Positions 9,733-51,557 of a DNA stretch of 64,000 nucleotides are shown here, piece after piece. Below the pieces are notes generated by a model. It did no database searches and was not told where the DNA came from. It saw only the letters and a list, made by a program, of their open reading frames with translations. A program made the position numbers and the translations under genes. This stretch comes from Leucoraja erinacea (lineage: Eukaryota), in assembly GCF_028641065.1 (NCBI RefSeq), contig NC_073377.1, positions 144,770,001-144,834,000 on the forward strand, read 5' to 3'. How positions within the stretch are numbered: the first letter of the stretch is position 1; the number at the start of each line of letters is the position of its first letter.

Positions 9733-10925
9733 CAGAGCTGCCAACTCTCACACGTTGAGCGTGAGAATCATGCATTTTGCCCGATTCTCATGCTCTCACG
9801 CGGATCACAAATTTCTCACGTGAGAAATTCTGTGATCAACAAAAATTTCAAAACTAATATCAACTGTTTGGGTGCACTTCTGTTGACAAGACAGCAGCAT
9901 TCTTATTCTCTGTTATTCTAACTTGACCGAACTGTCACACATCACCAAAGCATGGCCCCATGCAAATTTACATTGAAAGACAAGGACCGGGCAGTGAATG
10001 AGTGTCACCCAGCGCAGCAAGTAAGGCCATGTCCTGCTCCCTGCGCCTGTCGGAATTTAAGGATTTGCTGCGAGCGGCAGGAGAGAGGTACATGGGCCGC
10101 GGAACCGGGGGGGCTGGAAAACGACAATTTTTGGCTAGACATGTTTCAATGTCTCAAGCTTTGGACGAGGCGCTGCTGTGCTCTAAGCAACCTGGTCATG
10201 GGTGTTGGAGAGCCGGGGCTGAGGGAGGGAGGAAGGGAGGGATAGAAGCAGAACCAGCAGTAGCAGATGCAGACAGGGAGCCGGGGCTGGCGAGTGTTTG
10301 CCATGCTGGCGAGTTGCTCGCTGCAGCTCCGGCCATGGGGCAGCCTCAGTGCAAGTGTCCTGGGCTGTCGGAGGTGTTGGAAACGTTGCGCCGCTGCCGT
10401 GAGAATCTCTGCGCCCAATTCGCCCAGGTGACTGGGATGGACCAGGCTACAACTCGGTGCATCCTGGAGGGCAACCAATGGCTGCTGGAAGTAAGTACCA
10501 AGCACTGGGTAGAAGCAGTGGAAGATAGTGGCCTTCAAATGTGGGCGGTTGGAGAAAACATCCTGATTTATTGCTAGATTTATGCTTAATGTAACTGCAG
10601 GAAAAATGTTCCCGATGTTGGGGGAGTTCAGAACCAGGGGTCACAGTTTAAGAATAAGGGATAGGCCATTTAGGACTGAGATGTGAACAAACTATTTCAC
10701 CCAGATAGTTGTGAATCTGCGGAATTATCTGCCATAGTGAGCAGTGGAGGCCAATTCACTGGATGTTTTCAAGATAGAGTTTTCTTAGTGCTAACGAAAT
10801 CAAGGAATATGAGGAACAAACAGGAACGAGGCACTGATTTTAGATGAACAGACATGATAATATTGAATGGCAGTGCTGGCTCGAAGGCCGAATGGCCTAT
10901 TCCTACACCTATTTTCTATGCTTGA
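9733..10925 (+). mobile_element. Composite non-autonomous element (hAT-like CAGAG(C/T)TGCCA end + TDP2-like exon + CR1 piece), copy 1
   Basis: The terminus, internal segments and CR1 junction are shared with the inverted copy at 34236-34797. The right end is not defined. Confidence 0.7.
10389..10490 (+). pseudogene. TDP2: TDP2 exon-1-like fragment (UBA-like domain start) with splice donor
   Basis: RRCRENLCAQFAQVTGMDQATTRCILEGNQWLLE resembles recalled vertebrate TDP2 (RRLLCVEFASVASCDAAVAQCFLAENDWEME). It is followed directly by GTAAGT (10491-10496). No exon 2 (RALNS.F) was seen. Confidence 0.65.
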
Positions 10926-16707: not shown

Positions 16708-16834
16708 CAAGAAAGAACTGCAGATGGTGGAAATTCGAAGGTACACAAAAATGCTGGAGAAACTCAGCGGGTGCAGCAGCATCTATGGAGCGAAGGAAAT
16801 AGGCAACGTTTCGGGCCGAAACCCTTCTTCAGAC
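16708..16834 (-). mobile_element. Penelope pLTR short copy with hammerhead motif
   Basis: Minus strand reads gtCTGAAGAa-GGGT-ttcg-GCCC-GAAACGTT-gc. Nearly identical to the insert at 44189-44279. Confidence 0.75.
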
Positions 16835-23969: not shown

Positions 23970-24206
23970 AGGGCCTCATCCACTTAGGCGACTGCCTAGG
24001 GACTAGTTTTAATGGAATTCACCTACGACACCTGGCGAGAACCTACGACCGCACCTACGACAAACTACAACAACACCTATGTTAACCTACAACAACCTAC
24101 AACAGCAAAAATTGTCGCCACTGTCGCCGAAAAATGTCAACATGTTGAAAAGTTTGCGGCAGTCGCATGTAGTCGCCCAAAAAATTGCCTAAGTGGGACA
24201 GGTCCA
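23970..24206. mobile_element. PIF/Harbinger-type MITE
   Basis: Imperfect TIRs GGGCCTCATCCACTTAGGC / GCCTAAGTGGGACAGGTCC, with TAA/TTA flanks. Confidence 0.7.
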
Positions 24207-25351: not shown

Positions 25352-27144
25352 CAGGTGCACAACCTTTTATCCGAAAGCCTTGGTTCCAGACACTTTTCGT
25401 AAATTCGGAATTTTTTGCCTTTCGGAATGGAAGATTTTTAGCGTAGATTTTAATGGCTGGCTCAGTGGTAGAGTGCTCGGCTGATATCAAGGTTGCGAGT
25501 TTGCGCCTCGATCCCGGCAGTTACTCGATCGCGAGTTTGAGTCTTCAATGTAGTTTTTTCTTGCAGAATAGGAGAGAATATGGAGGGTTAGGCTGGGATC
25601 ATTCTCTGGGAGATGATCTTAGTGCGGGAGACAAGTGTAGGAGAGGTGTACTGACTGTGTGGGCAGAACTTTGGAAGTGATTGCCCACCATTCTCAAAAG
25701 CCGATGTGTCTCCCTGTCCCTGGGATAGCAGGGGGCGATCAAACAGCACAATACCCCCTCCCCCTCCAACTCCAGAAGAATCCGCTCCCCGATGGGCTGC
25801 TGCGGTGACAAGTGGCAGTTCGCTCACAGCCCGAGCTGCGCCACCCCAAGAACAAGATGTACCTTGCACACCATCAGCTTCTGCCCCTACGGAGAGCGTG
25901 TTCCTCTGGAGTTGGAGCAGGGCTGGGCTGGAGTTGCTGATCTGGGATCTCCGTGCCTGCAGTGGGCCTGGGGGTCGGTGTCCTGATGAGGGGGCGCAGC
26001 TCGGGCTGTGGGCGAACTGCCACTTGTCGCCGTAGCGGCCCATTGGGGAGCAGCTTCTGGTGGTCCTGACCTCTCAGCTCCTGTCCAGTGGGGTGGCCGG
26101 AGACGTCAGGACCAACAGTAACCCGCTCCCCGATGCGCCGCTACAGCGACAAGTGGCAGTTCACCCACAGCCCGAGCTGCGCCCCCTCATCCGCAACCTG
26201 GGTTCCTCTGGAGTTGGAACGGGGCTGGGCTAGAGTTGCTGCTGGCTGTGAGTCTCTGGGATCTCCGTGCTTGCAGTCGGTGTCCCGTTGGTCCTGATGT
26301 CTCCGGCCACCCCCCTGGACAGGAGCTGAGACTGGGAACTGTACCGCCCTTGCCCCCTCCCTCTGCAACTGCAAACAACCCCACTCTCCTGCTCACCTGC
26401 AAGGGCGGTACAGTTCCCAGTCTCAGCTCCTGTGCAGGGGGGTGACCGGAGACGTCACAGCCCGAGCTGTGCCCCCTCATCCGCAACCCCAAGAACAAGA
26501 CGTACCTTGCACACCATCAGCTTCTGTCCCTACGGGGAGCGTGTTCCTCTGGAGTTGGAACGGGGTTGGGCTGCTACTGGCTGTGGGTCTCTGGGATCTC
26601 CGTGCTCGCAGTGGGCCTGGGGGTCGGTGTCCCGTTGGTCCTGACGTCTCCGGTGACTGGCACTGACCTGCTGGCATCGCCGACGTGAAGACAGTGCAAA
26701 GCCCCCACGCCGGTGCATTGGGCAGGGAGCTGGAGAGGGGAGGGAAGGGGTCACACACATGGCCGGGAAGCAGAGCGGTGTAGGTGGGGTGAAACTGAAG
26801 GGAGCGACAATCTGCTGCTGCCTGCCCGCTGAGTTAAAAATTTCCCACGCAAGACTCACGATACACTGTGTATCGTGAGTCTACTGTGGGAACTTTTTAA
26901 CTCAGCGGGCAGGCAGCAGCAGATTGTCAATTATTAACTCTCCCGCGCAATATACCCTCAACTTCTCTTTTATGAATGGGGATTTAGTTCCCCTTTCTTC
27001 GAGGACCGACCGGAGATTCCGCTGTCACCTCTGCGGGCCGCCCTCGGTGAACGTCTTCAAGGACCTTTCTTCAAGGACCGAAAAAATGTCCGCATTTCGG
27101 AGCTTTTCGTTATTTGGAATTTTGGATAAAAGATTGTGCACCTG
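25352..27144. mobile_element. Non-autonomous Tc1/mariner-pogo (Tigger-like) DNA transposon
   Basis: TIRs CAGGTGCACAACCTTTTATCC / GGATAAAAGATTGTGCACCTG are flanked by TA on both sides (25350-51, 27145-46). The interior is GC-rich and repetitive with no transposase. Confidence 0.85.
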
Positions 27145-29397: not shown

Positions 29398-29723
29398 AGG
29401 GCCTGTCCAGTTACGTAACTTTTTTGGCGACCGCTGGCACCCGTCATAGGTCGTTACAGTTCGCCGAAAATCTTCAACATGTTGAAAATCCAGAGCCGAC
29501 CAGAACAAGGTTCAACTCTTTGGGCGGTTGCTCACGACCATACAGGCTTCACCCCGCGACATGTCTCGCCAAGGTGTTGCCTGTATGGTCGTGAGTAGTC
29601 TCCTAGTCACCAAAAGAGCATCTTTCTGGTCGTCTCTGAATTTTCAACATGCTGAAAACTTTCGGCGACCTATGACGGGTGCCGGCAGTCGCTGAAAAAA
29701 GTTGCATAAGTGGGACAGGCCCT
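29398..29723. mobile_element. PIF/Harbinger-type MITE
   Basis: TIRs AGGGCCTGTCC.. / ..GGGACAGGCCCT with long subterminal inverted similarity. Confidence 0.75.
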
Positions 29724-30163: not shown

Positions 30164-31225
30164 GTGAAGAAAGCAAATGGCATGTTGGTCATTATAACAA
30201 GAGGAATCGAATATAGGGGCAAAGAGGTCCTTCTGCAGTTGTACAGAGCCCTAGTGAGACCACACCTGTCCCACTTACGCGACCATGGCTCGCAAATTAC
30301 GCGACCTCGTGGTTGCTTGAGGCGTACGGGGCACCGTATGACCGCACGGGGTCGGTCCCACTTAGAAGCGGGGAGTTGTGTGGCGCTGGTCCTGAGATTG
30401 CGCGGGGCTCTGAAATTCTGGCAGTGGCCAAAATCTTTGCGCGCCAACATCCTGTTGGCACGCAGGCGCATTGCGGTCGTACGCAGCGTCTTGACGTCAT
30501 ACGCAGCGTCTTAACGGCGTACACAGCGTCTTAACGGCGTACGCCTAGCGCGTGGCGTTGTGCGATGTCATCGCACGGCGAGGCGTTGTGTGATGACGTC
30601 ACTGCCCGACGACATGCGACGCCCAAATTCAGTCAGCCCGCCTCCTGCGCAGCTGATTGGTAACTATGACGCAAATGACGTCACGCGCCTACTTAGCGCG
30701 AATTTCGCGTGAACACTGCTTCCGTTTGGTCGCGCCAAACGCATGCAAATGGGACAGGCCTGTCCCACTATACGAGATAATTCAAGAGCTCTCCTGAGTT
30801 AAATAAAAAATCAAACTCATAGTAAGTATGTAGAATGTATGTAGTGGCTACGTCTGAGCTCGTGGATGTCTCATAGTGGCTGGTAATGCTAACAGCAGGT
30901 TCTCTGGAAACGGGGTAACTCGTGAAGTTTTTTCAGCACTGTGAAAAATGTCCACGAGAGCCCCGAGTACCAACGAATGGATATTAGCATAATTCTCCGA
31001 GTTCGAATCAGGGGAAACTCGGGAGAACTCTTGAATTACCTCGTACAGTGGGTCAGGCCCTTTAGATTTAGCTCTTAGGGCTAATGGAATCAAGGGATTT
31101 GGGGAAAAAGCAGGAATGCGGTACTGATTTTGGATGATCAGCCATTATCATATTGAATGGCGATGCTGGCTCAAAGGACCAAATGTCCTACTCCTGCACC
31201 TATTATCTATGTTTCTATGTTTCAT
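30164..31225 (+). mobile_element. CR1 3' fragment interrupted by two fused Harbinger-type MITEs (30265-30760, 30757-31061)
   Basis: KKANGML..ITRGIEYRGKEVLLQLYRALVRPHL runs into CCTGTCCCACT. The MITE junction is GGGACAGGCCTGTCCC. The CR1 3' end resumes at ~31063. Confidence 0.8.
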
Positions 31226-35445: not shown

Positions 35446-35905
35446 AGGGCCTGTCCCACTTGCATGCGATTGCATGCATTTGGCGAGACCAAACGGAAGC
35501 GGAGTTCATGCTAAGTATGCGCTAAGTCCGTGCGTGACGTCATTTGCATCATACTTACCAATCAGCTGGGCAGGAGGCGGGCCGACTGAATTTGGGTATC
35601 ACACAGCGTCGGGCGGTGACGTCATCACGCAATGCAACGCCACGCGCTAGGCGTACGCCGTCAAGACGCTGCGTACGCCCGCAATGAACCTGCGTGCGTA
35701 TGCGAGCCAACAGGCCATTGGCGCGCAACATTTTCAGACATTGCAGGAATTAGACCAGTGCCCGCGAAATGTTGGGACCAGCACCGCACAACTCCATACG
35801 CCTCCGCGCTCCTAAGTGGGACCGGCCCCGCGAGGCCCGTACGCTTCAAACGACCACGAGGTTGCCTAATTTGTGCGCCAAGGTCGTGTAAGTGGGGCAG
35901 GCCCT
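35446..35905. mobile_element. PIF/Harbinger-type MITE (inverted sister of 30265-30760)
   Basis: Reads TAAGGGCCTGTCCCACTT...AAGTGGGGCAGGCCCT. The CpG-rich interior is reverse-complementary to 30265-30760. Confidence 0.8.
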
Positions 35906-40365: not shown

Positions 40366-42119
40366 CTTTTTAAAAAACTAAAAGGTGGTGCTTGCCCCCT
40401 TTCCCCATCTCACTCCAGGAACCATGCTGTCAGTGTTGACTGCTAAATACTCAAGAGTGATAGAGTGATACAGTGTGGAATCAGGCCCTTCAGCCCAACT
40501 TGCCCACACCAGCCAACATGTCCCAGCTACACTAGTCCTGGTAACACAATATTGATCATGAGCATCATCTTCCAATGATCCACAACCACCAGAACATTGA
40601 GGGATGTAAATCCTCCTGCTGCTGAAGAAGTCCAAGTTATTATTGTGAAGGCATGAGTATAGTCAATGGCTGCCTGGAATCATTGTGAGGCAACACGTCA
40701 ACAAATCCCAATGCCTGGGAGGTGTCACTTTTCCACATTGGCATCAAAGTAGATGAAATCATTCCTCTTGAAATTCTCGGTGAAACTTCTGATTAAGCAA
40801 TCAGCATCAAATAGAGAAAGCAGAAATTTGCAGCAGCCATTTGAATGTCACACAGTGAAGAGGTTCAGATTAATCAAAATCTTTTTTCTCCATCTCCTGA
40901 CAGTATTTCACACAACTCGTATACACAAAATACAGAGATGCTGCCTGTCCCGCAGAGTTTCTCCAGCATTTTGGTCTGTTTTCGGGGTAAACCAGCATCT
41001 GCAGTTCCTTCCTACTCATTTCACACAGCTCTGCAGTTACAGGCTTGAAATACCCGAAGCAGCCAAGGCACAGCTTAGAGATGTCCAGGTAGGATGGGAC
41101 TTGAAGACTTCCTGGAAGCAGGCAGTTCACTGGCAAGCATGATTTTACTTGTTGTGCCATGGTTCCCCATCCATCCGAAGTGACCAGTTTTGGACATAAC
41201 AATACTTGCAGTAATGGAGCACTTGTTGGTGGACTAGTGAAGGATCTGAAGAATCCCTGCAGGCTACACAATGGAGAAAGCACTCTTTAGTACATTCCTC
41301 ATACTCTGTGGGCTTTGGACGCCGGACTGTGGGCTGTGGACTTTTGGCTTGAGCTATCTGCTATTATGGCCAGTCAGGTCTCCTAATGTCAGCAGATATC
41401 CATTTAAATAGCCAGGAGAGTTGCATTTTCATACAATGGTTGTATGGAGGCTGTACCACAACAGCCATCAATTGTCACTCAAAGCTGCAAACCACAACAG
41501 GACCGCTGGAAGTGGGTGTTCGTGAATGCAGATAGCAGCATTACTATCTGTGCAACTAATACCAAACAAAGGTCAGATGCAGTAGTGAGAATCATGCACA
41601 TAAACAACTTATCCAATTTCACCCGAATACAATACTTAACACGAACCACTCCAAATAAAACAGATTTTTGCAAGGAGAGGAAACTGAAGAAAACCCGGAG
41701 AAAAACCACGCAGGTCACGGGGAGAACGAACAAACTCCGTACAGACAGCACCCGCAGTCAGGAATGAACCAGGGACCCCGGGGTCTGGCGCTGTAAGGCA
41801 GCAACTCTACCGCTGCACCACCATACCGACTTTTGGAAACAAAAATAAAATTACATGCTCTACAATAAAATAACACTTATTCAATGTTCTCTGCACCTGT
41901 GAGGATCAATTTTAATCAACAGAAAATGTATGGGCCGTATACCTGTGATTTCCCACAACGCATCAGGTCATTGCAGTTCCCTGCAAGTACAGAACTGGCT
42001 TTTCATTTTCTCTATTATGTTGAAATGGCAAATGGTAATATTTTATTGTATCATTAGTTGTGGGTTTGCTGTTGAAAATACATTCCATTCCAGAAATGTA
42101 TTTTTACTTTTTCTGTAGG

Positions 42120-42360
42120 GGTTTGAAATGAGTGTTTTTGGACTATTGGTTCAAGGATGCAGGCGCCACAGGCAAGACAGAGGTCTGAGTAGAAGAGGAG
42201 GGCTGTTGCTTTACTGATTAAGGAGAACATCACGGCAGTGGTCTGAGATGACATTACTAATGGTTCATCCAGAGAAGATATATGGGGGGAACAGAGAACT
42301 AAAAAGGGGAGATAATGTTATTGAGAGTGTACTATAGACCCCTAGTTAACAGAAATTAGA
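42120..42360 (+). mobile_element. CR1 endonuclease-region fragment, degenerate
   Basis: Motifs RRGG..VALLIKENITAV and GVYYRP resemble the CR1 APE domain. Confidence 0.55.
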
Positions 42361-43523
42361 GTACACTAGGGACTCAGGCTTTTGTTTTTTCACTGTATTG
42401 TGTTTTCATTTTTTCATATTGAACTTCTTGTAGAGTTGCTGCCTTACAGCACCAGAGACCCGGAATCGATTCTGACTACGGGTGCTGTCAGTACAGATTT
42501 TGTACATTCTTCATAGGACTGCGTGGGTTTTCTCCGGGTGCTCTGGTTTCCTCCCACGCTCCAAAGATGTACAGGTTTGTAGGTTAATTGGCTTCTGAAA
42601 ATTGACCCTAGTGTAGGATAGAACTACTGTACAGTGTTCAAGGTCAAATGGCTTTTCCACGCTGTATCTCCAAAGTCTAAAGTTGAGTTTCACGCTTCAC
42701 AAGCAGCATGCTGAATCACAAGGTCAAATGGCTTTCTGTAGTCCACATGGGGAGTTAAAGCTGAGTCTCACGTTGCGAGTTGACACAAGAGGTACCCAGA
42801 GTTAAAACTCGTGGTAATAACGTACGATTAACGTACGGAACTCGTGGACGCAACTTAGAGACTTGTGGCACTAACGGCAGGTACCCGTGAAACTTGTCAA
42901 CTCTTGAAAAAAATCAAACATGTTTAAAGTTTTCCACGAGTCAAATTTACTCTTGTGGTTAAGAATTGAAACATTTTAACTCGTTGTAAGAACGTAGTGG
43001 CCCGTGCGTTTACCTTAGTGGATCGTGAGTCTACCGTGGGAACTCTTTAACTCAGCGGGTAGGCAGCGGCAGATTGTCGCTCCCTTCAGTTTCCCAGCGA
43101 CAATCTCCTGCCATAACGCGAGAGAGATCATGCACTGTTGTAGGTCTCCTTTGCACGTCGGTGTTTCTGTCTTTCTCCACTCATTGTTGGCCCTATCTGT
43201 CACCACCCCCACCTACACCCCTCTGCTTCCCGGCCATGTGTGTGACACCTTCCCTCCCCTCTCCAGCTCCCCGCCCATTGCACCGGCACGGGGGAAAGCC
43301 CAGGTAGAAGTTGAACTCAAGATTTATATCCCCTGAAAGTTAGGTTTCTTAACACAGGATAGATGTCCTGCCAGAACGGAGTTGCTGAATAAAATCGTCT
43401 CCCATTTTCCTCCGTTTCTTGCATGACCTTGGCTTGCCAGCTTTATTTCACACTCCGTGATCTGTGTAATGTATATATGTAAAATAATAAACTGACCAAG
43501 AAGGTCCAGTGTTCTCCCCTGTT

Positions 43524-43808
43524 AGGTTAGTTTCGAGATACAGAGCGGAAGATACAGAGTCCGCGCCGACCAGCGATCCCGCACACTAACACCATCCTAC
43601 ACCCACTATGGACATTTTTACATTCACCAAGCAAATTAACCTAGAAACCTGTACGTCTTTGGAGTGTGGGGGGATCTCGGAGGTCACCCACGCAGGTCAC
43701 GGGCGAACTTACAAACTCAGTACAGACAGCACCCATAGTCGGGATCGAACCCGGGTCTCCGACGCTGCATTCGCTGTCAGGCAACAACTCTACTGCTGCG
43801 CCGCCGTG
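43524..43808 (-). mobile_element. V-SINE/HE1-like SINE nested in the Harbinger element
   Basis: Reverse complement of the family sequence. Confidence 0.8.
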
Positions 43809-43825
43809 AATGAAGGCCTGTTTTA

Positions 43826-44455
43826 AGTATCAAATAGATGAGCAAGAGGGTGATCAAGGCGGAGAAAGTGTAGAGGACAATGCCCATGTAGTCCAACTCG
43901 TAGGAGTGCAGGTCCACCATGACGACGCCGTGGCCGCAGTGGGCTATGGAGGGAGGTGCAGGTGACATCGGTGACCAGGGGAGGGATGTAGGTGCAGAGA
44001 AAGTGGTTGCCACTTAGCCGCAGCTCCCGAAGGTGTTTGATGGCTCTCTCCGGGAAACTGGAGACCTGGATGATCTTCAGGTTGTTGTAACTGAGATCCA
44101 GATACTGCAGGGAGGACACGTCCCGCAGGAAGTCCTTGGTCAGCTTGGAGAACTGGTTGTGGGTTGAAGCCGCAGAGTCTGGGTGCAGGTACACAAAAAT
44201 GCTGGAGAAACTCAGCGGGTGCAGCAGCATCTATGGAGCGAAGGAGATAGGTAACGTTTCGGGCCGAAACCCTTCTTCTGAGTCTGGGTGCAGTTGGACA
44301 GCATGCGAGGGACCGTGGGCAACAGGTTGCTACCGAGGTCCAGCAGCTCCAACCCCAGTTGAAGCTCCACAGCTTGTTACCACTCAGTACAAGCTCCTTG
44401 AGTAGCGGGGGCAGGTGGTCAAACACGTCTTGCGGCATGAACGCGAGCTTCTTCC
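43826..44455 (-). pseudogene. TLR7: TLR7-like fragment (C-terminal LRRs, LRR-CT, transmembrane start), disrupted
   Basis: Joined frames give LAFMPQDVFDHLPPLLKELVLSGNKLWSFNW / LELLDLGSNLLPTVPRMLSNCTQT / NQFSKLTKDFLRDVSSLQYLDLSYNNLKIIQVSSFPE..GNHFLCT / IPPLVTDVTC / GHGVVMVDLHSYELDYMGIVLYTFS. This is colinear with recalled TLR7 (VPERLSNCS, LTKYFLQD, SFPE, NRFLCT, IPYLATDVTC, CELD). It has frameshifts, deletions and an insertion, and no TIR signalling domain. Confidence 0.88.
44189..44279 (-). mobile_element. Short Penelope pLTR insertion within the TLR7 fragment
   Basis: Flanked by the 14-bp TSD GAGTCTGGGTGCAG (44175-44188, 44280-44293). Near-identical to 16741-16830. Confidence 0.85.
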
Positions 44456-46039
44456 CCTAATAATCTGCTGCTATCTGTTTTCGAGAGCAAAAACTTGCAA
44501 AGGGCAGGCACGGTTCCTCGCCAGCGAAGATGGACACAGAATGCAGGAGTAACTCAGCGGGACAGGCAGCATCTCTGGCGAGAAGGAATGGGGGACGTTT
44601 CGGGTCGAGACCCATTACTTCTCTCCAGAGATACGGCAACAACACAGCACAAAACCAGTCACAAAACCACCGACCTAGATGCGGCCGCGCTGAATTCTAT
44701 CTTTAAAACAAAGCCACAGGATGGAGAGGTCTTCTTTAACACTGTTGCTTATTAAAACAAACCTTCAATCAGGATTGGCTCAAGAGTAACTCGGGAGACG
44801 AACTTGGAACATCGCAGAAATGACAACTAAACGTCAAACTTGTCATACCCGTGGGAACTCGGTTAAACTCTTGATCATACACTTGCACTCGTACACAACC
44901 ACAAGTCTTTCACTAGGGGTACCTCTTGTGTCAACTCGCAACGTGAGACTCAGCTATTACATCTTCACATATATCACAACATCTAACTTCCTCCTTTGCT
45001 TCTCAATCTACACATGTTTCTGCTCACTTCATTATTACACAGATAGTCGTGAAGTTTAGTCCATTGACCAATGATATTGTTTTACCCAGTCTAGAGGCCA
45101 AACTAAAAGATTTGGATCAGCCCAATGCTATTTATATCCCTGTATTTCATATGGCCAAATGGCCTATTTCATTTAAATGGTTCCTCACTAACATTGAATA
45201 ACTTCTTCATAATTGCTATCAGTGCCTTACAAAACTCTTCCTGATCTTTCCCAAGATTGAGTTCATATAGCCCATTCAAATCCCCATCTAATTTAAAACT
45301 AAAGCATTCATTTTATTTTCTATAATGCTTTTTCTAACCAACCCAAAAAATCATACAAGGAACACCTTATCACAGAAAATGTATCTCTCTAAAAATGTAG
45401 GAGAAATAAAGATATGCAATTGCTACCAAATTACTCCTTAAATGCAAGATACACAAAGAGCCTGATCGAAAAATGTCACATCAAGATTGCTTCTACATAT
45501 ACAAAGAAACAATGTAACAGAATGCAAACTAATAACACCATGATCATTGTACCAAGCAGACACTTGAAGAAAATAGGCTATATATTCCTCTAAAAAATAA
45601 CTCAAATTACAAATACAAATGCTTTGAGGGGAAAGAAGATCTATTGAAACCGAAGGGATAAAACATAAATAATCATCGACAGCCAAGAATAAAATGACAT
45701 GATGGAAAAGTTAATTCAACTTGGACAGCGTGGACAAAATTCTCAAACAGTTATTACACTAAAGTAAAGAACAGAGTAAAGACCAAACAGCACAAACCTT
45801 TGTCTAAAAAAACCAAACACCTGCCACACAAATCAAATTGTCAAAGAGGAATCAGAACCTCATGCATACAAAATTAATAAAAAAAAGTTCTGAAACAAGA
45901 AATTGTTGAGGCTTTGGAAGGCAGGGTAGACGATACAGTCATCCAATATAATTTAACAGATGACATGCGTCACAATTTGGCGGGATGTCATTTCACTGCA
46001 GCAATGACAGTCACAGGGTCATAGAACAAAGCAATAAAC

Positions 46040-46530
46040 CATTTGTTTCAACTTGTCCACGTTGACCAATGCGCCCAATTTAAGCTAGTACCATTTGCCT
46101 ATGTTTGACCCGTAACCCTCTAAATCATGTTATCCCTGTCCCTGTCCAAATGTCTTTTAAATATTGTTATTGTACCTGCCTCAACTACTTCCTCTGACAG
46201 CTCGTTCCATATAACCACCACCCTCTGTGCGGAAAAAGTCACCCCTCAATTTCTTATTAATCTGTCCCCTCTCACTTTAAACTTATGTTCTGTGGTTCTT
46301 GATTCCCCTCACCTCTCTTTCTGTCGTGATTCCCTTACCCTTGAAACAAACTCTGTGCATTCATCCTACCTATTCCACCAATGATCGTTGATACCCCTAT
46401 AAGATCATCCCTCAGCATCCTTTGCTCCAAAGAACAAAGTATTAATATGGCCAAACTATAGCTCAGGCCCTCAAGTCCTGGCAACACCCTTACAGATGTT
46501 GGCTGCACTCTTTCCAGCTTCATGGCATCT
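46040..46530 (-). mobile_element. CR1 LINE 3' fragment, old
   Basis: Reads KDAMKLERVQ....LPGLEGLSY...L.SLEQRMLRDDLI. Confidence 0.75.
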
Positions 46531-46625
46531 TTCAATGTTAAATTTGTCACTCATATTTGGTAATCTAGTCTAAGAAAACAGACACTATCAACGAAAAAAA
46601 GCCATTTCCAACACATCAGTCGTTT

Positions 46626-46945
46626 CAGGGCGGCACAGTGGTGCAGTGGTAGAGTTGCTGCCTTACAGTGCTTGCAGCACCGGAGACCCGGGTTCAATCC
46701 CGACTACGGGTGCTGTCTGTACGGAGTTTGTACTTTCTCCCTGTGACCGCGTGGGTTTTCTCCGAGATCTTCGGTTTCCACCCACACTCCAAAGACAAGC
46801 AGGTTTGTAGGTTAATTAGCTAGATACAAGTGTAAATTGTCCCTGGTGTGTGTAGGATAGTGTTCATGTGCGGGAATTGCAGGTCGGTGTGGACTCAATG
46901 GGCCAAAGTGCCTGTTTCTGCACTGTATCTCTAAACTAAACTGAA
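46626..46945 (+). mobile_element. V-SINE/HE1-like SINE
   Basis: Full length, from GGGCGGCACAGTGGTGCAGTGGTAGAG and GGTTCAATCCC to a (CTAAA)n tail. Confidence 0.88.
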
Positions 46946-47489
46946 CTTCCATCAATTGAGCACCTATGCATGCTTTTGCTACTTTTTCTGCTCAGTCCTC
47001 TACACATTCTGACCTGTGTCACCCCAATCAGTCGTGATCTCATTAGGTCATGTTGGTTCTTCTCCCTGAAATAAGTTTAAAGATTGTTGTTTTAAATACC
47101 AATTAAACTGTGAAGAATTGGGATATCACCAAAGTAATCTCACAGCTCATACTAGGGTTTTGGTATTGCCTGTACAAACATTTTCAAATGCAGGAGCATG
47201 TGGCCTAGAATTTCTGACACAGTGTCAAAACAACAAAGAAACAGAACACTTATCCAAGCTATACAGATGGAAGTATCTGTCATTTTGGATAAAGTGGTGG
47301 TTCCTCGAAGGTATCAGATGTTGTTTGATTGTCAGCTTTGTAGTGGAATTAAATGAAATAGGAAGGTACTTTCTAGATGACTTATGGGAATGAAAGAAAA
47401 CCAGACGTGCTACTCCATGTCTGATTACGTCTGATATTGTTAGATAACCATCTGAACAAATAAGCAACAAGCAGAGTAAAGATATTCTG

Positions 47490-49727: not shown

Positions 49728-51557
49728 GGCTCATGCACGAGTTTCTGTTACATTGATTGCAAAGACATCACATCTCCCTCTTTACTTTTAAGATGTTACA
49801 GGCACTTGTATTTACCTTATATACATAGTACATTTATTACATAACGTAGCAAGAAATCACATCTCCCTCTACTTTATATCGCCCTCTTCATTTTACAGAT
49901 CATTACAGATCTCCCCCTTTTCACTTTGTTTATCATCTTCCTACAGATCATACATCTCCCCCTTTTCACTTTGTTTATCAACTCCCCTGATGTCCACTTT
50001 ACTCTTACACTCTAGCAAAGGGCCTCTCTCAATTGCCTTTTACTGCGACTGGGAGACTGGCTCCCACCTCTCGTCTAGCTAGGCATCTGGGGACTTATTC
50101 TGGAATCTAGGAGATGGGTCCTCTGACTAGGTTTCTCCTACTTAAAGACCCTTCTGGGAGACTACTGCTGGATTCTGGAAGACAGGCTCCTCTGTCCAGG
50201 TTACTCCCATCTGGGCGTCTGATGGTCCATCCACGGCTATCCAGGGTTTTTTTTTTTTTTTTTTTTACACACTGCTACACGGGGTTCCCCTTTTATTCCA
50301 TCATACTAAGACTCATACTTAGTTTGGTTGATCACCTCGATGAGGGAGAAGAGAAGAGATAATGAACTGCGGTAATCACCTGCAGCTGTTGAAAACACAA
50401 TTAACAGACACAAACTTAGTTGAGATAATGAACTGCATGTCAAGACAAAACATTGATTGCCCCTTAATTAGTATACCCAAATCACCTGTGAAGACAGAAC
50501 ACTAATAACTAATAGAACCCCGTTCTATAGTATTCTTACATTTGTTCTTACATTCCCTCTTTCCCATGGAAAGAATGTTCCTTTCATCACAACAGTACCA
50601 AATGCAGTCTTTTAACTTACAGTACAGTGGCAGTGTTTATCAGTAGAAAATAGCTAAATAATCTCCTCTTCTTATGGAAGGAATGATCTTTTATCACAAC
50701 ATTACCAAGTGCAGTGTATTGCTGTCGAAAAGAGCCAAATAATTACATGGTTCTGTATTATTTTTACATCCAAAAGAACCGAGGCAGTGCATATCTGTGG
50801 AAAAGAGCAACAGTACCAAGGCAGTATATATCAGGTAAACAAAACCCAATTGGAAGAGACCCATTTCTTACAGCATGTCACACAGCATTTCACTTTAATC
50901 TTACTTTTACAGCACATTTACATAATGTTTTACATTTGTGTCTGTCTGTGTCTTCTTCTTCTGAGATCCCGCTTCTCTGCCCACCGTTGGCTCTCGGGCT
51001 CACCTGGTCGCTGCCATGCCGGTCGCTGCTTCTCCCGTTGGGACTGCACCTCTCGTCGGGGCTGCACCTCTCTCCCCTGCGTCGGGACTGCACCTGGGGC
51101 TGCACCTCTCTCCACCGCTGGCCACTCCAGACCTCCGATACTGGTTGCCTGCTGACCTTCCTCTTTACCTCGTTCCCCTGCGTCAGGGCTTTCACGACCG
51201 GGCTGACCCTCCTTCCGGCCGGGCTCACTCTGTTTCGTCGGTCTTGTTCGATGACAGTAGTGGCTCCACTGTCCTGTTTGAACCTTCCTCTACTACTTCT
51301 CTTCCATGGAGGCTTGAGGCTTGCTCTCCTCTACTCCTTTCCCTTTTTTCTTTGTTTTCTTCTGACACCATGTAAGGTATTCTCGTCCGTTGTAACTAGC
51401 ACAAAAGACAGGTCCACACCGGGTTTGTGTTCCAGAGCAAGAGCCCGTTTAGTCTGTAATCACTGCCTTTTATCTTGAAGGTCACTTGACCTCAGTCACG
51501 AGGCTCATGCACGAGTTTCTGTTTACATGTGATTTCAAAGATATCACAGACATCACA
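49728..51557 (-). mobile_element. Non-autonomous LTR retroelement (Gypsy-like/TRIM-like)
   Basis: 5' LTR at 51557-51371 (TGTGATG...TTACA). PBS TGGTGTCAGAAG at 51370-51359. PPT AAAGAGGGAGA at 49783-49773. A truncated 3' LTR at 49772-49728 matches the start of the 5' LTR. No recognisable pol. Confidence 0.8.

Follow-up and report, generated by a model that had tools for sequence, protein, structure and literature searches.

A putative non-autonomous inverted-repeat transposon with a pseudogenic TLR7 fragment in a skate genome

Gene-carrying elements in animals and dead TLR7 copies in skates

Gene-carrying transposons with terminal inverted repeats (TIRs) are already described in animals, and Pack-Harbingers in vertebrates. 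A survey of 100 animal genomes reported 370 Pack-TIRs, of which 21 were PIF-Harbinger: 3 in Xenopus laevis, 14 in alligator, and 4 in X. tropicalis (Tan et al. 2021, PMC8277862). Given 21 of 370, the rarity in vertebrates asserted in a preliminary description of the present locus was overstated. Multicopy animal Pack-TIRs numbered four (1.4%) in the same survey, with 3 of 23 in the western clawed frog. More than half of all Pack-TIRs (56.9%) lay within 15 kb of the parent gene, and the multicopy ones were always distal (PMC8277862). Elephant shark yielded 0 Pack-TIRs, and the word “skate” is absent from the main text of the survey.

Additional pseudogenised TLR7 copies have been reported in Rajiformes and in blue shark (bioRxiv 10.64898/2026.03.23.713620); the main text of that preprint contains no word beginning “transpos” and gives neither copy number nor position. 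An expansion of TcMar elements has been reported in skates, with Harbinger unmentioned in the portion of the text consulted (PMC12361510). Judged by titles and the start of abstracts, the papers found on the capture of TLR sequence by DNA transposons concern rolling-circle elements. The literature that we covered contains no mention of the proteins XP_055503482.1 or XP_032889224.1 and no description of the skate element; subscription papers and Repbase/Dfam lay mostly outside this scope, and absence from print is not thereby established.

We analyzed a 64,000-nucleotide stretch of skate DNA (the window). Very probably, it holds a non-autonomous TIR element with a pseudogenic TLR7 gene fragment. 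The fuller account, in which a non-autonomous PHIS Pack-TIR with a dead TLR7 fragment moved after capture, is one for which we find the balance even. TIR-element sequence lies on both sides of an internal piece that is not transposon-derived, as in a Pack-TIR. The element resembles the animal PIF-Harbinger Pack-TIRs (e.g., Harbinger-N31_Gav and Harbinger-N3_XT; PMC8277862) in being non-autonomous and in having TIR-element sequence that flanks duplicated host DNA. In contrast to the Pack-TIRs of that survey, its cargo is immune-receptor coding sequence, it is distal to its parent, and its arms appear younger than the cargo; it is also longer (2.2 kb) than the PIF-Harbinger examples listed there (∼0.35–1.06 kb). 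Like the pseudocopies reported in Rajiformes (bioRxiv 10.64898/2026.03.23.713620), which accompany one intact gene, the fragment in the window is dead TLR7 sequence in a skate.

Termini, target site, and superfamily

The arms of the element form a perfect TIR, with 39 of 39 pairs complementary between 42759–42797 and 44917–44955 (chance expectation of such a pair in 64 kb, ∼3e-14). One base beyond each perfect arm stands TTA, giving a left (42755–42757) and a right (44957–44959) target-site duplication; the TIR and the TTA on both flanks are thus as first described. The outermost pair of the element is mismatched, since 42758 and 44956 are both A. The left terminus accordingly consists of an unpaired A and its arm (42758–42797, plus strand), and the right terminus of its arm and an unpaired A (44917–44956, minus strand). 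The limits originally proposed, 42758–44956, hold on the reading that the terminal pair is mismatched, which related elements in the window support. A target duplication of 4 bp (TTAA) or 5 bp is ruled out by the flanking bases.

The left subterminal region (42798–43016, plus strand) adjoins the arm, and 42765–42940 has a homologue in a 300-bp TIR element (30757–31059; alignment score 79; best of 100 shuffles, 35). The right interior and subterminal region (44614–44916, plus strand) has a motif in common with 43005–43062, and the similarity of the right arm to the MITEs of the window was no higher than that of shuffles. We also sought an empty site within the window, where the flanks of the element have no informative relatives. 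To the left of the element, an exact 17-bp direct repeat occupies 42639–42655 and 42719–42735, and one of its copies falls within a SINE-like repeat. Between the two copies, at 42681, lies a 14-mer that weakly resembles the TIR, with two mismatches.

Related short TIR elements are found in the window at 23971–24205, 29399–29722, 30262–31060, and 35447–35904, and two of these elements are joined end to end at 30756–30761. We tabulated nine ends, seven from the related elements and two from the TLR7-carrying element, with one fused end excluded. T-N-A stands one base beyond the terminus at 7/9 ends (P = 5e-7) and TWA at 5/9 (P = 7e-6). Among the four two-ended elements, two have TTA/TTA together with an A...A terminal mismatch, one has TGA/TCA, and one has no duplication; the element at 23971–24205 has the same TTA geometry as the TLR7-carrying element. 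At four ends of the related elements, C precedes T-N-A, which is the NuwaII-type target (PMC4482050).

PIF/Harbinger elements have TWA duplications, TIRs usually shorter than 60 bp that start with A or G, and two ORFs; autonomous members encode a DDE transposase and Myb/SANT ORFs (PMC4482050). The TLR7-carrying element has a 3-bp TWA duplication and 39-bp arms with A at the left terminus, and with the PIF/Harbinger and NuwaII groups of PHIS (Han et al. 2015, PMC4482050) it has in common TWA, a TIR below 60 bp, and A as first base. It differs from both groups in its mismatched terminal pair and in having no transposase or Myb/SANT ORF, and where NuwaII has C before T-N-A, it reads G-TTA...TTA-C. 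A Pfam search at E up to 10 matched 0 of 31 interior frames to transposase or Myb families. A non-autonomous copy would lack these ORFs anyway, yet their absence leaves PHIS membership unproved. The PIF/Harbinger membership claimed earlier therefore keeps its support from the termini and finds none in the coding capacity; we infer the “Harbinger” label from the target-site duplication and TIR only.

It is very improbable that the element belongs instead to another superfamily with an AT-rich target. Kolobok elements duplicate TTAA, which is what the left flank reads; the right flank is ATTA, not TTAA, and a Kolobok identity is rejected on this basis. The A/A terminal mismatch leaves the boundary of the element ambiguous, and Chapaev3 also makes TWA duplications (PMC3014272). 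However, Chapaev3 TIRs start with CAC (PMC3014272) and the present TIR with A, by which we rejected Chapaev3, and the T-N-A pattern recurs in the related window elements, which also speaks against another superfamily.

The TLR7 cargo and its second version

Inside the arms, the element is composite. A plus-strand segment at 43017–43294 is shared with the interior of a Tigger-like element (26702–26867 and 26868–26928), the matching stretches being 43017–43093 and 43207–43294 at 91–93% identity. The copy at 43017–43294 is 109 nt longer than its counterpart in the Tigger-like element (25352–27144), and it opens with a motif of the TLR7-carrying element’s own right arm (score reached in 0/300 shuffles; the three other arm orientations tested were not significant). 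Because of this length and this motif, the TLR7-carrying element may be the original home of the piece and the Tigger-like element the borrower. The sequence in common noted in the preliminary description is confirmed, and a transfer from the Tigger-like element is doubtful. The element at 25352–27144 is itself a 1.8-kb TIR element flanked by TA; its interior is composite and contains a palindrome, centered near 26867, whose arms match 43017–43093.

The next interval (43295–43521) has no Pfam match and no assignment. It is followed by a SINE-like repeat (43522–43809, minus strand) and, beyond the TLR7 sequence, by an older short repeat, putatively of pLTR type (44526–44613); these two and a short repeat at 44189–44279 have many relatives in the window. 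The SINE and pLTR inserts reported before are thus present as repeats, and SINE, pLTR, and Tigger are presumed labels. An Atlas look-up of one 41-aa interior frame fell below the recognition threshold, and an Rfam search over 42600–45100 returned 0 matches at E up to 0.1. Elsewhere in the window, a GC-rich stretch at 50893–51375 (minus strand) has long open frames, short internal repeats, and no Pfam match.

The broken TLR7 fragment lies on the minus strand at 43839–44456 and corresponds to residues ∼657–851 of Amblyraja radiata TLR7 (XP_032889224.1), an intact skate TLR7. Of its 618 bp, which include a 91-bp insert and one copy of the insert’s 14-bp duplication, 513 bp are TLR7-derived; the TLR7 origin and disruption of the segment stand as first described, and its size of ∼630 bp does not. 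The insert (44189–44279, within 44175–44293) is a young repeat, 96.8% identical to 16739–16833; with it, 14 bp of TLR7 sequence are perfectly duplicated. Further lesions are two deletions, one near 44350 that shifts the frame and one of 45 bp near 43990, and another frameshift near 43951. The fragment covers the last LRRs and, as read from its sequence, a putative LRR-CT region with the greater part of a transmembrane helix. Without the receptor’s TIR domain and with a broken frame, it falls short of an intact TLR7, in which the full ectodomain, the transmembrane helix, and the TIR domain form one open frame. TLR7 residues 1–650 and 856–1047 have no match anywhere in the window, which extends 43 kb to one side of the fragment and 19 kb to the other and contains no parent TLR7 gene.

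Several comparisons place the closest relative of the fragment in TLR7 rather than TLR8 or TLR9. For the longest in-frame block, A. radiata TLR7 was best among the 22 proteins listed (E = 2.6e-26, 66%), and chondrichthyan TLR7 supplied the best 8 of these 22 matches, which answers the question, left for checking, of whether the segment is TLR7/8-derived. A PDB search placed the best single stretch of the block in TLR7 chains, above TLR8 and TLR9, despite LRIG1 coming first by summed score. In a tree of nine sequences, which included no chondrichthyan TLR8, the fragment grouped with two skate sequences, XP_055503482.1 and A. radiata TLR7, at 100% bootstrap, a grouping that assigns the window to a skate. 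Full-length little-skate TLR7 was not among the 22 matches listed, and the cluster of A. radiata TLR7 has one member.

One of the 22 matches listed, XP_055503482.1, is a 249-aa Leucoraja erinacea RefSeq protein named “toll-like receptor 7”. Its residues 36–230 match TLR7 657–852, and both of its ends match the non-TLR sequence of the window: the ATG lies in the short repeat (44572), the linkers are those of the window, and the end falls in the head of the SINE-like repeat. On its sequence, this protein is a chimera of repeat sequence and a TLR7 fragment and no TLR7 gene. The linkers in common are a stretch at the 5′ junction (44457–44525, minus strand), in which the window copy has a stop at 44459 and 11 extra bases (44499–44509), and a 29-bp AT-rich stretch at the 3′ junction (43810–43838, minus strand). 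Across both non-TLR junctions, 183 of 226 aligned codons are identical between the window and XP_055503482.1, and a TGA directly follows the window codon homologous to the protein’s last codon. The two therefore have in common the TLR7 interval, the linkers, and the repeat-derived start and end. They differ in that XP_055503482.1 is an open frame free of the stop, deletions, and inner insert of the window copy.

The chimeric fragment thus exists in at least two versions, the second, known as a protein alone, being either an orthologue or a dispersed copy; no shorter chimeric TLR7 protein scored among 12 candidates. A private accident of one assembly is ruled out by the junctions that both versions have in common. 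The window fragment and XP_055503482.1 are sisters at 88% bootstrap (nine sequences), on a short stem, with 3 derived residues in common in 156 columns. Total divergence of the two versions is ∼6.7%, of which the window branch accounts for ∼4.1% since the split (amino-acid based). The earlier expectation that such copies inflate TLR counts was borne out once, by this RefSeq protein.

Both fragments look released from constraint, since each is changed at seven columns that are invariant in seven intact TLR7 proteins, and A. radiata TLR7 is changed at 1/97; two distant intact TLR7 proteins reach 6/102 such changes, over far longer branches. The fragment in the window is probably without coding function. 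No inverted partner of the TLR7 piece occurs in 41000–47000. In a transcript that folds back on itself, pairing would therefore involve the arms and leave the TLR7 sequence out, and the suggested antisense or small RNAs against TLR7 gain no support from this interval.

A second gene fragment occurs in the window. A TDP2 exon-1-like piece that includes the splice donor and the start of the intron is present twice, at 9733–10748 (plus strand) and 34797–34236 (minus strand). It encodes a UBA-like domain (PDB 6q00, E = 0.004), and a third version is found in protein P0030. The two copies are identical at 143 of 165 bases, with a terminus in common and different outer flanks; that terminus looks hAT-like. 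Neither a second terminus nor any further TDP2 exon motif came to light. These copies are possibly a second, multicopy repeat that carries a gene fragment.

Possible movement of the loaded element

We compared the age of the cargo with the state of the arms. The SINE-like repeat (43522–43809) is 8.8% from the leave-one-out consensus of 8 window copies and the short repeat at 44526–44613 is 5.7% from that of 14. Divergence from a consensus inflates age when few copies underlie it, as the 91-bp insert illustrates (14.6% from its consensus yet 96.8% identical to its neighbor). If the element were static, the probability of 0/39 broken pairs would be 0.038 at 4.1% divergence, 0.010 at 5.7%, and 0.0008 at 8.8%. 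Counting the terminal mismatch, these values become 0.16, 0.055, and 0.006; the branch rate of the little-skate version then gives 0.36. The four other TIR pairs examined in the window all have mismatches in their ends. Because the arms are unbroken while the cargo has aged by 4–9%, movement after cargo assembly is moderately favored (P = 0.001–0.16 if static). Movement is also supported by the fact that the window holds no other TLR7, multicopy Pack-TIRs being always distal to the parent (PMC8277862). The pseudogenised TLR7 copies reported in Rajiformes (bioRxiv 10.64898/2026.03.23.713620) likewise count in its favor. Against it, no second TIR-bearing locus was seen and XP_055503482.1 is known as a protein only; one of the 22 matches listed was a chimera, the interior frames matched no transposase, and four animal Pack-TIRs (1.4%) were multicopy (PMC8277862).

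Orthologous copies in two skate genera could likewise differ by ∼6.7%, as the two versions do. The element could then be a static single-copy Pack-TIR, with TLR7 copied in by gap filling in a skate ancestor, two orthologous loci, and arms that stayed intact by luck; we consider this possible but rather unlikely. Most animal Pack-TIRs are single-copy and arose without transposition (PMC8277862), and among the 22 matches listed there is one other version, with none more among the 12 shorter candidates. However, at the window-branch rate the 39/39 unbroken pairs have P = 0.04, which rises to 0.16 once the terminal mismatch is counted, and the parent gene is not within 43 kb on one side or 19 kb on the other. 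For orthology by synteny, a Pfam scan of 222 long window frames gave no usable host gene. The TDP2-like exon, tried as a synteny marker, was rejected, as it has no named homologue and one relative and is repeated within the window.

Young arms around old cargo would also be accounted for if an old pseudo-fragment of TLR7, accompanied by the SINE and the short repeat, had stood at a TIR-free locus and was later copied whole by a young element. Homology between the window and XP_055503482.1 can be demonstrated for 44572–43780 only, all inside the arms, as such a history would allow. It requires two capture events, however, and the few changes common to both fragments (3/156 columns) leave little time for a donor stage, which makes it decidedly improbable.

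Under our preferred account, an element with old retroelement pieces already in its interior would have acquired ∼590 bp of TLR7 coding sequence. The likeliest process would be template switching in the course of repair or replication, as suggested for Pack-TIRs (PMC8277862). The TLR7 piece has no intron and is compatible with a DNA or an RNA route. At least two lineages of the chimeric block arose, the window copy and the XP_055503482.1 line, as their common junctions show. A transposase acting in trans would then have moved the loaded element at least once, and this movement after capture is our proposed reason why the arms and target-site duplication look younger than the cargo. The window copy decayed and took a further insert. 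The practical effect of the element would be false TLR7 gene models. Of the capture and dispersal put forward in the preliminary description, the enclosure of a TLR7-derived piece by the element is upheld, and dispersal in part, through the second version and the arms that appear younger than the cargo. Multicopy dispersal of the loaded element, without function, is a tentative reading that we place a little short of even.

A bolder reading seems to us a long shot. PHIS would have spread a TLR7 LRR-CT and transmembrane module across skates as a multicopy family, the source of the skate pseudocopies, and an expressed XP_055503482.1 stub would dampen signaling. TLR7 interacts with the trafficking chaperone UNC93B1. 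The stub, which would be repeat-capped, membrane-anchored, and without a receptor TIR domain, might for example compete for this chaperone. The open 249-codon frame of XP_055503482.1 allows such a reading, and its seven changes at otherwise invariant columns argue against it.

The TDP2 exon found twice behind a common terminus hints that shuffling of gene fragments by repeats is common in the skate genome. If multicopy, the TLR7-carrying element would join a very small class (four multicopy animal Pack-TIRs, PMC8277862), to which it would add a coding, immune-gene example in cartilaginous fish. One public little-skate “TLR7” is a repeat-flanked fragment, and counts of the TLR repertoire are affected by it. 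The value of the finding is that it links a transposon with the TLR7 pseudocopies described from skates and with a mislabeled database protein: a loaded transposon may be the origin of those additional dead copies, for which it offers a testable mechanism.
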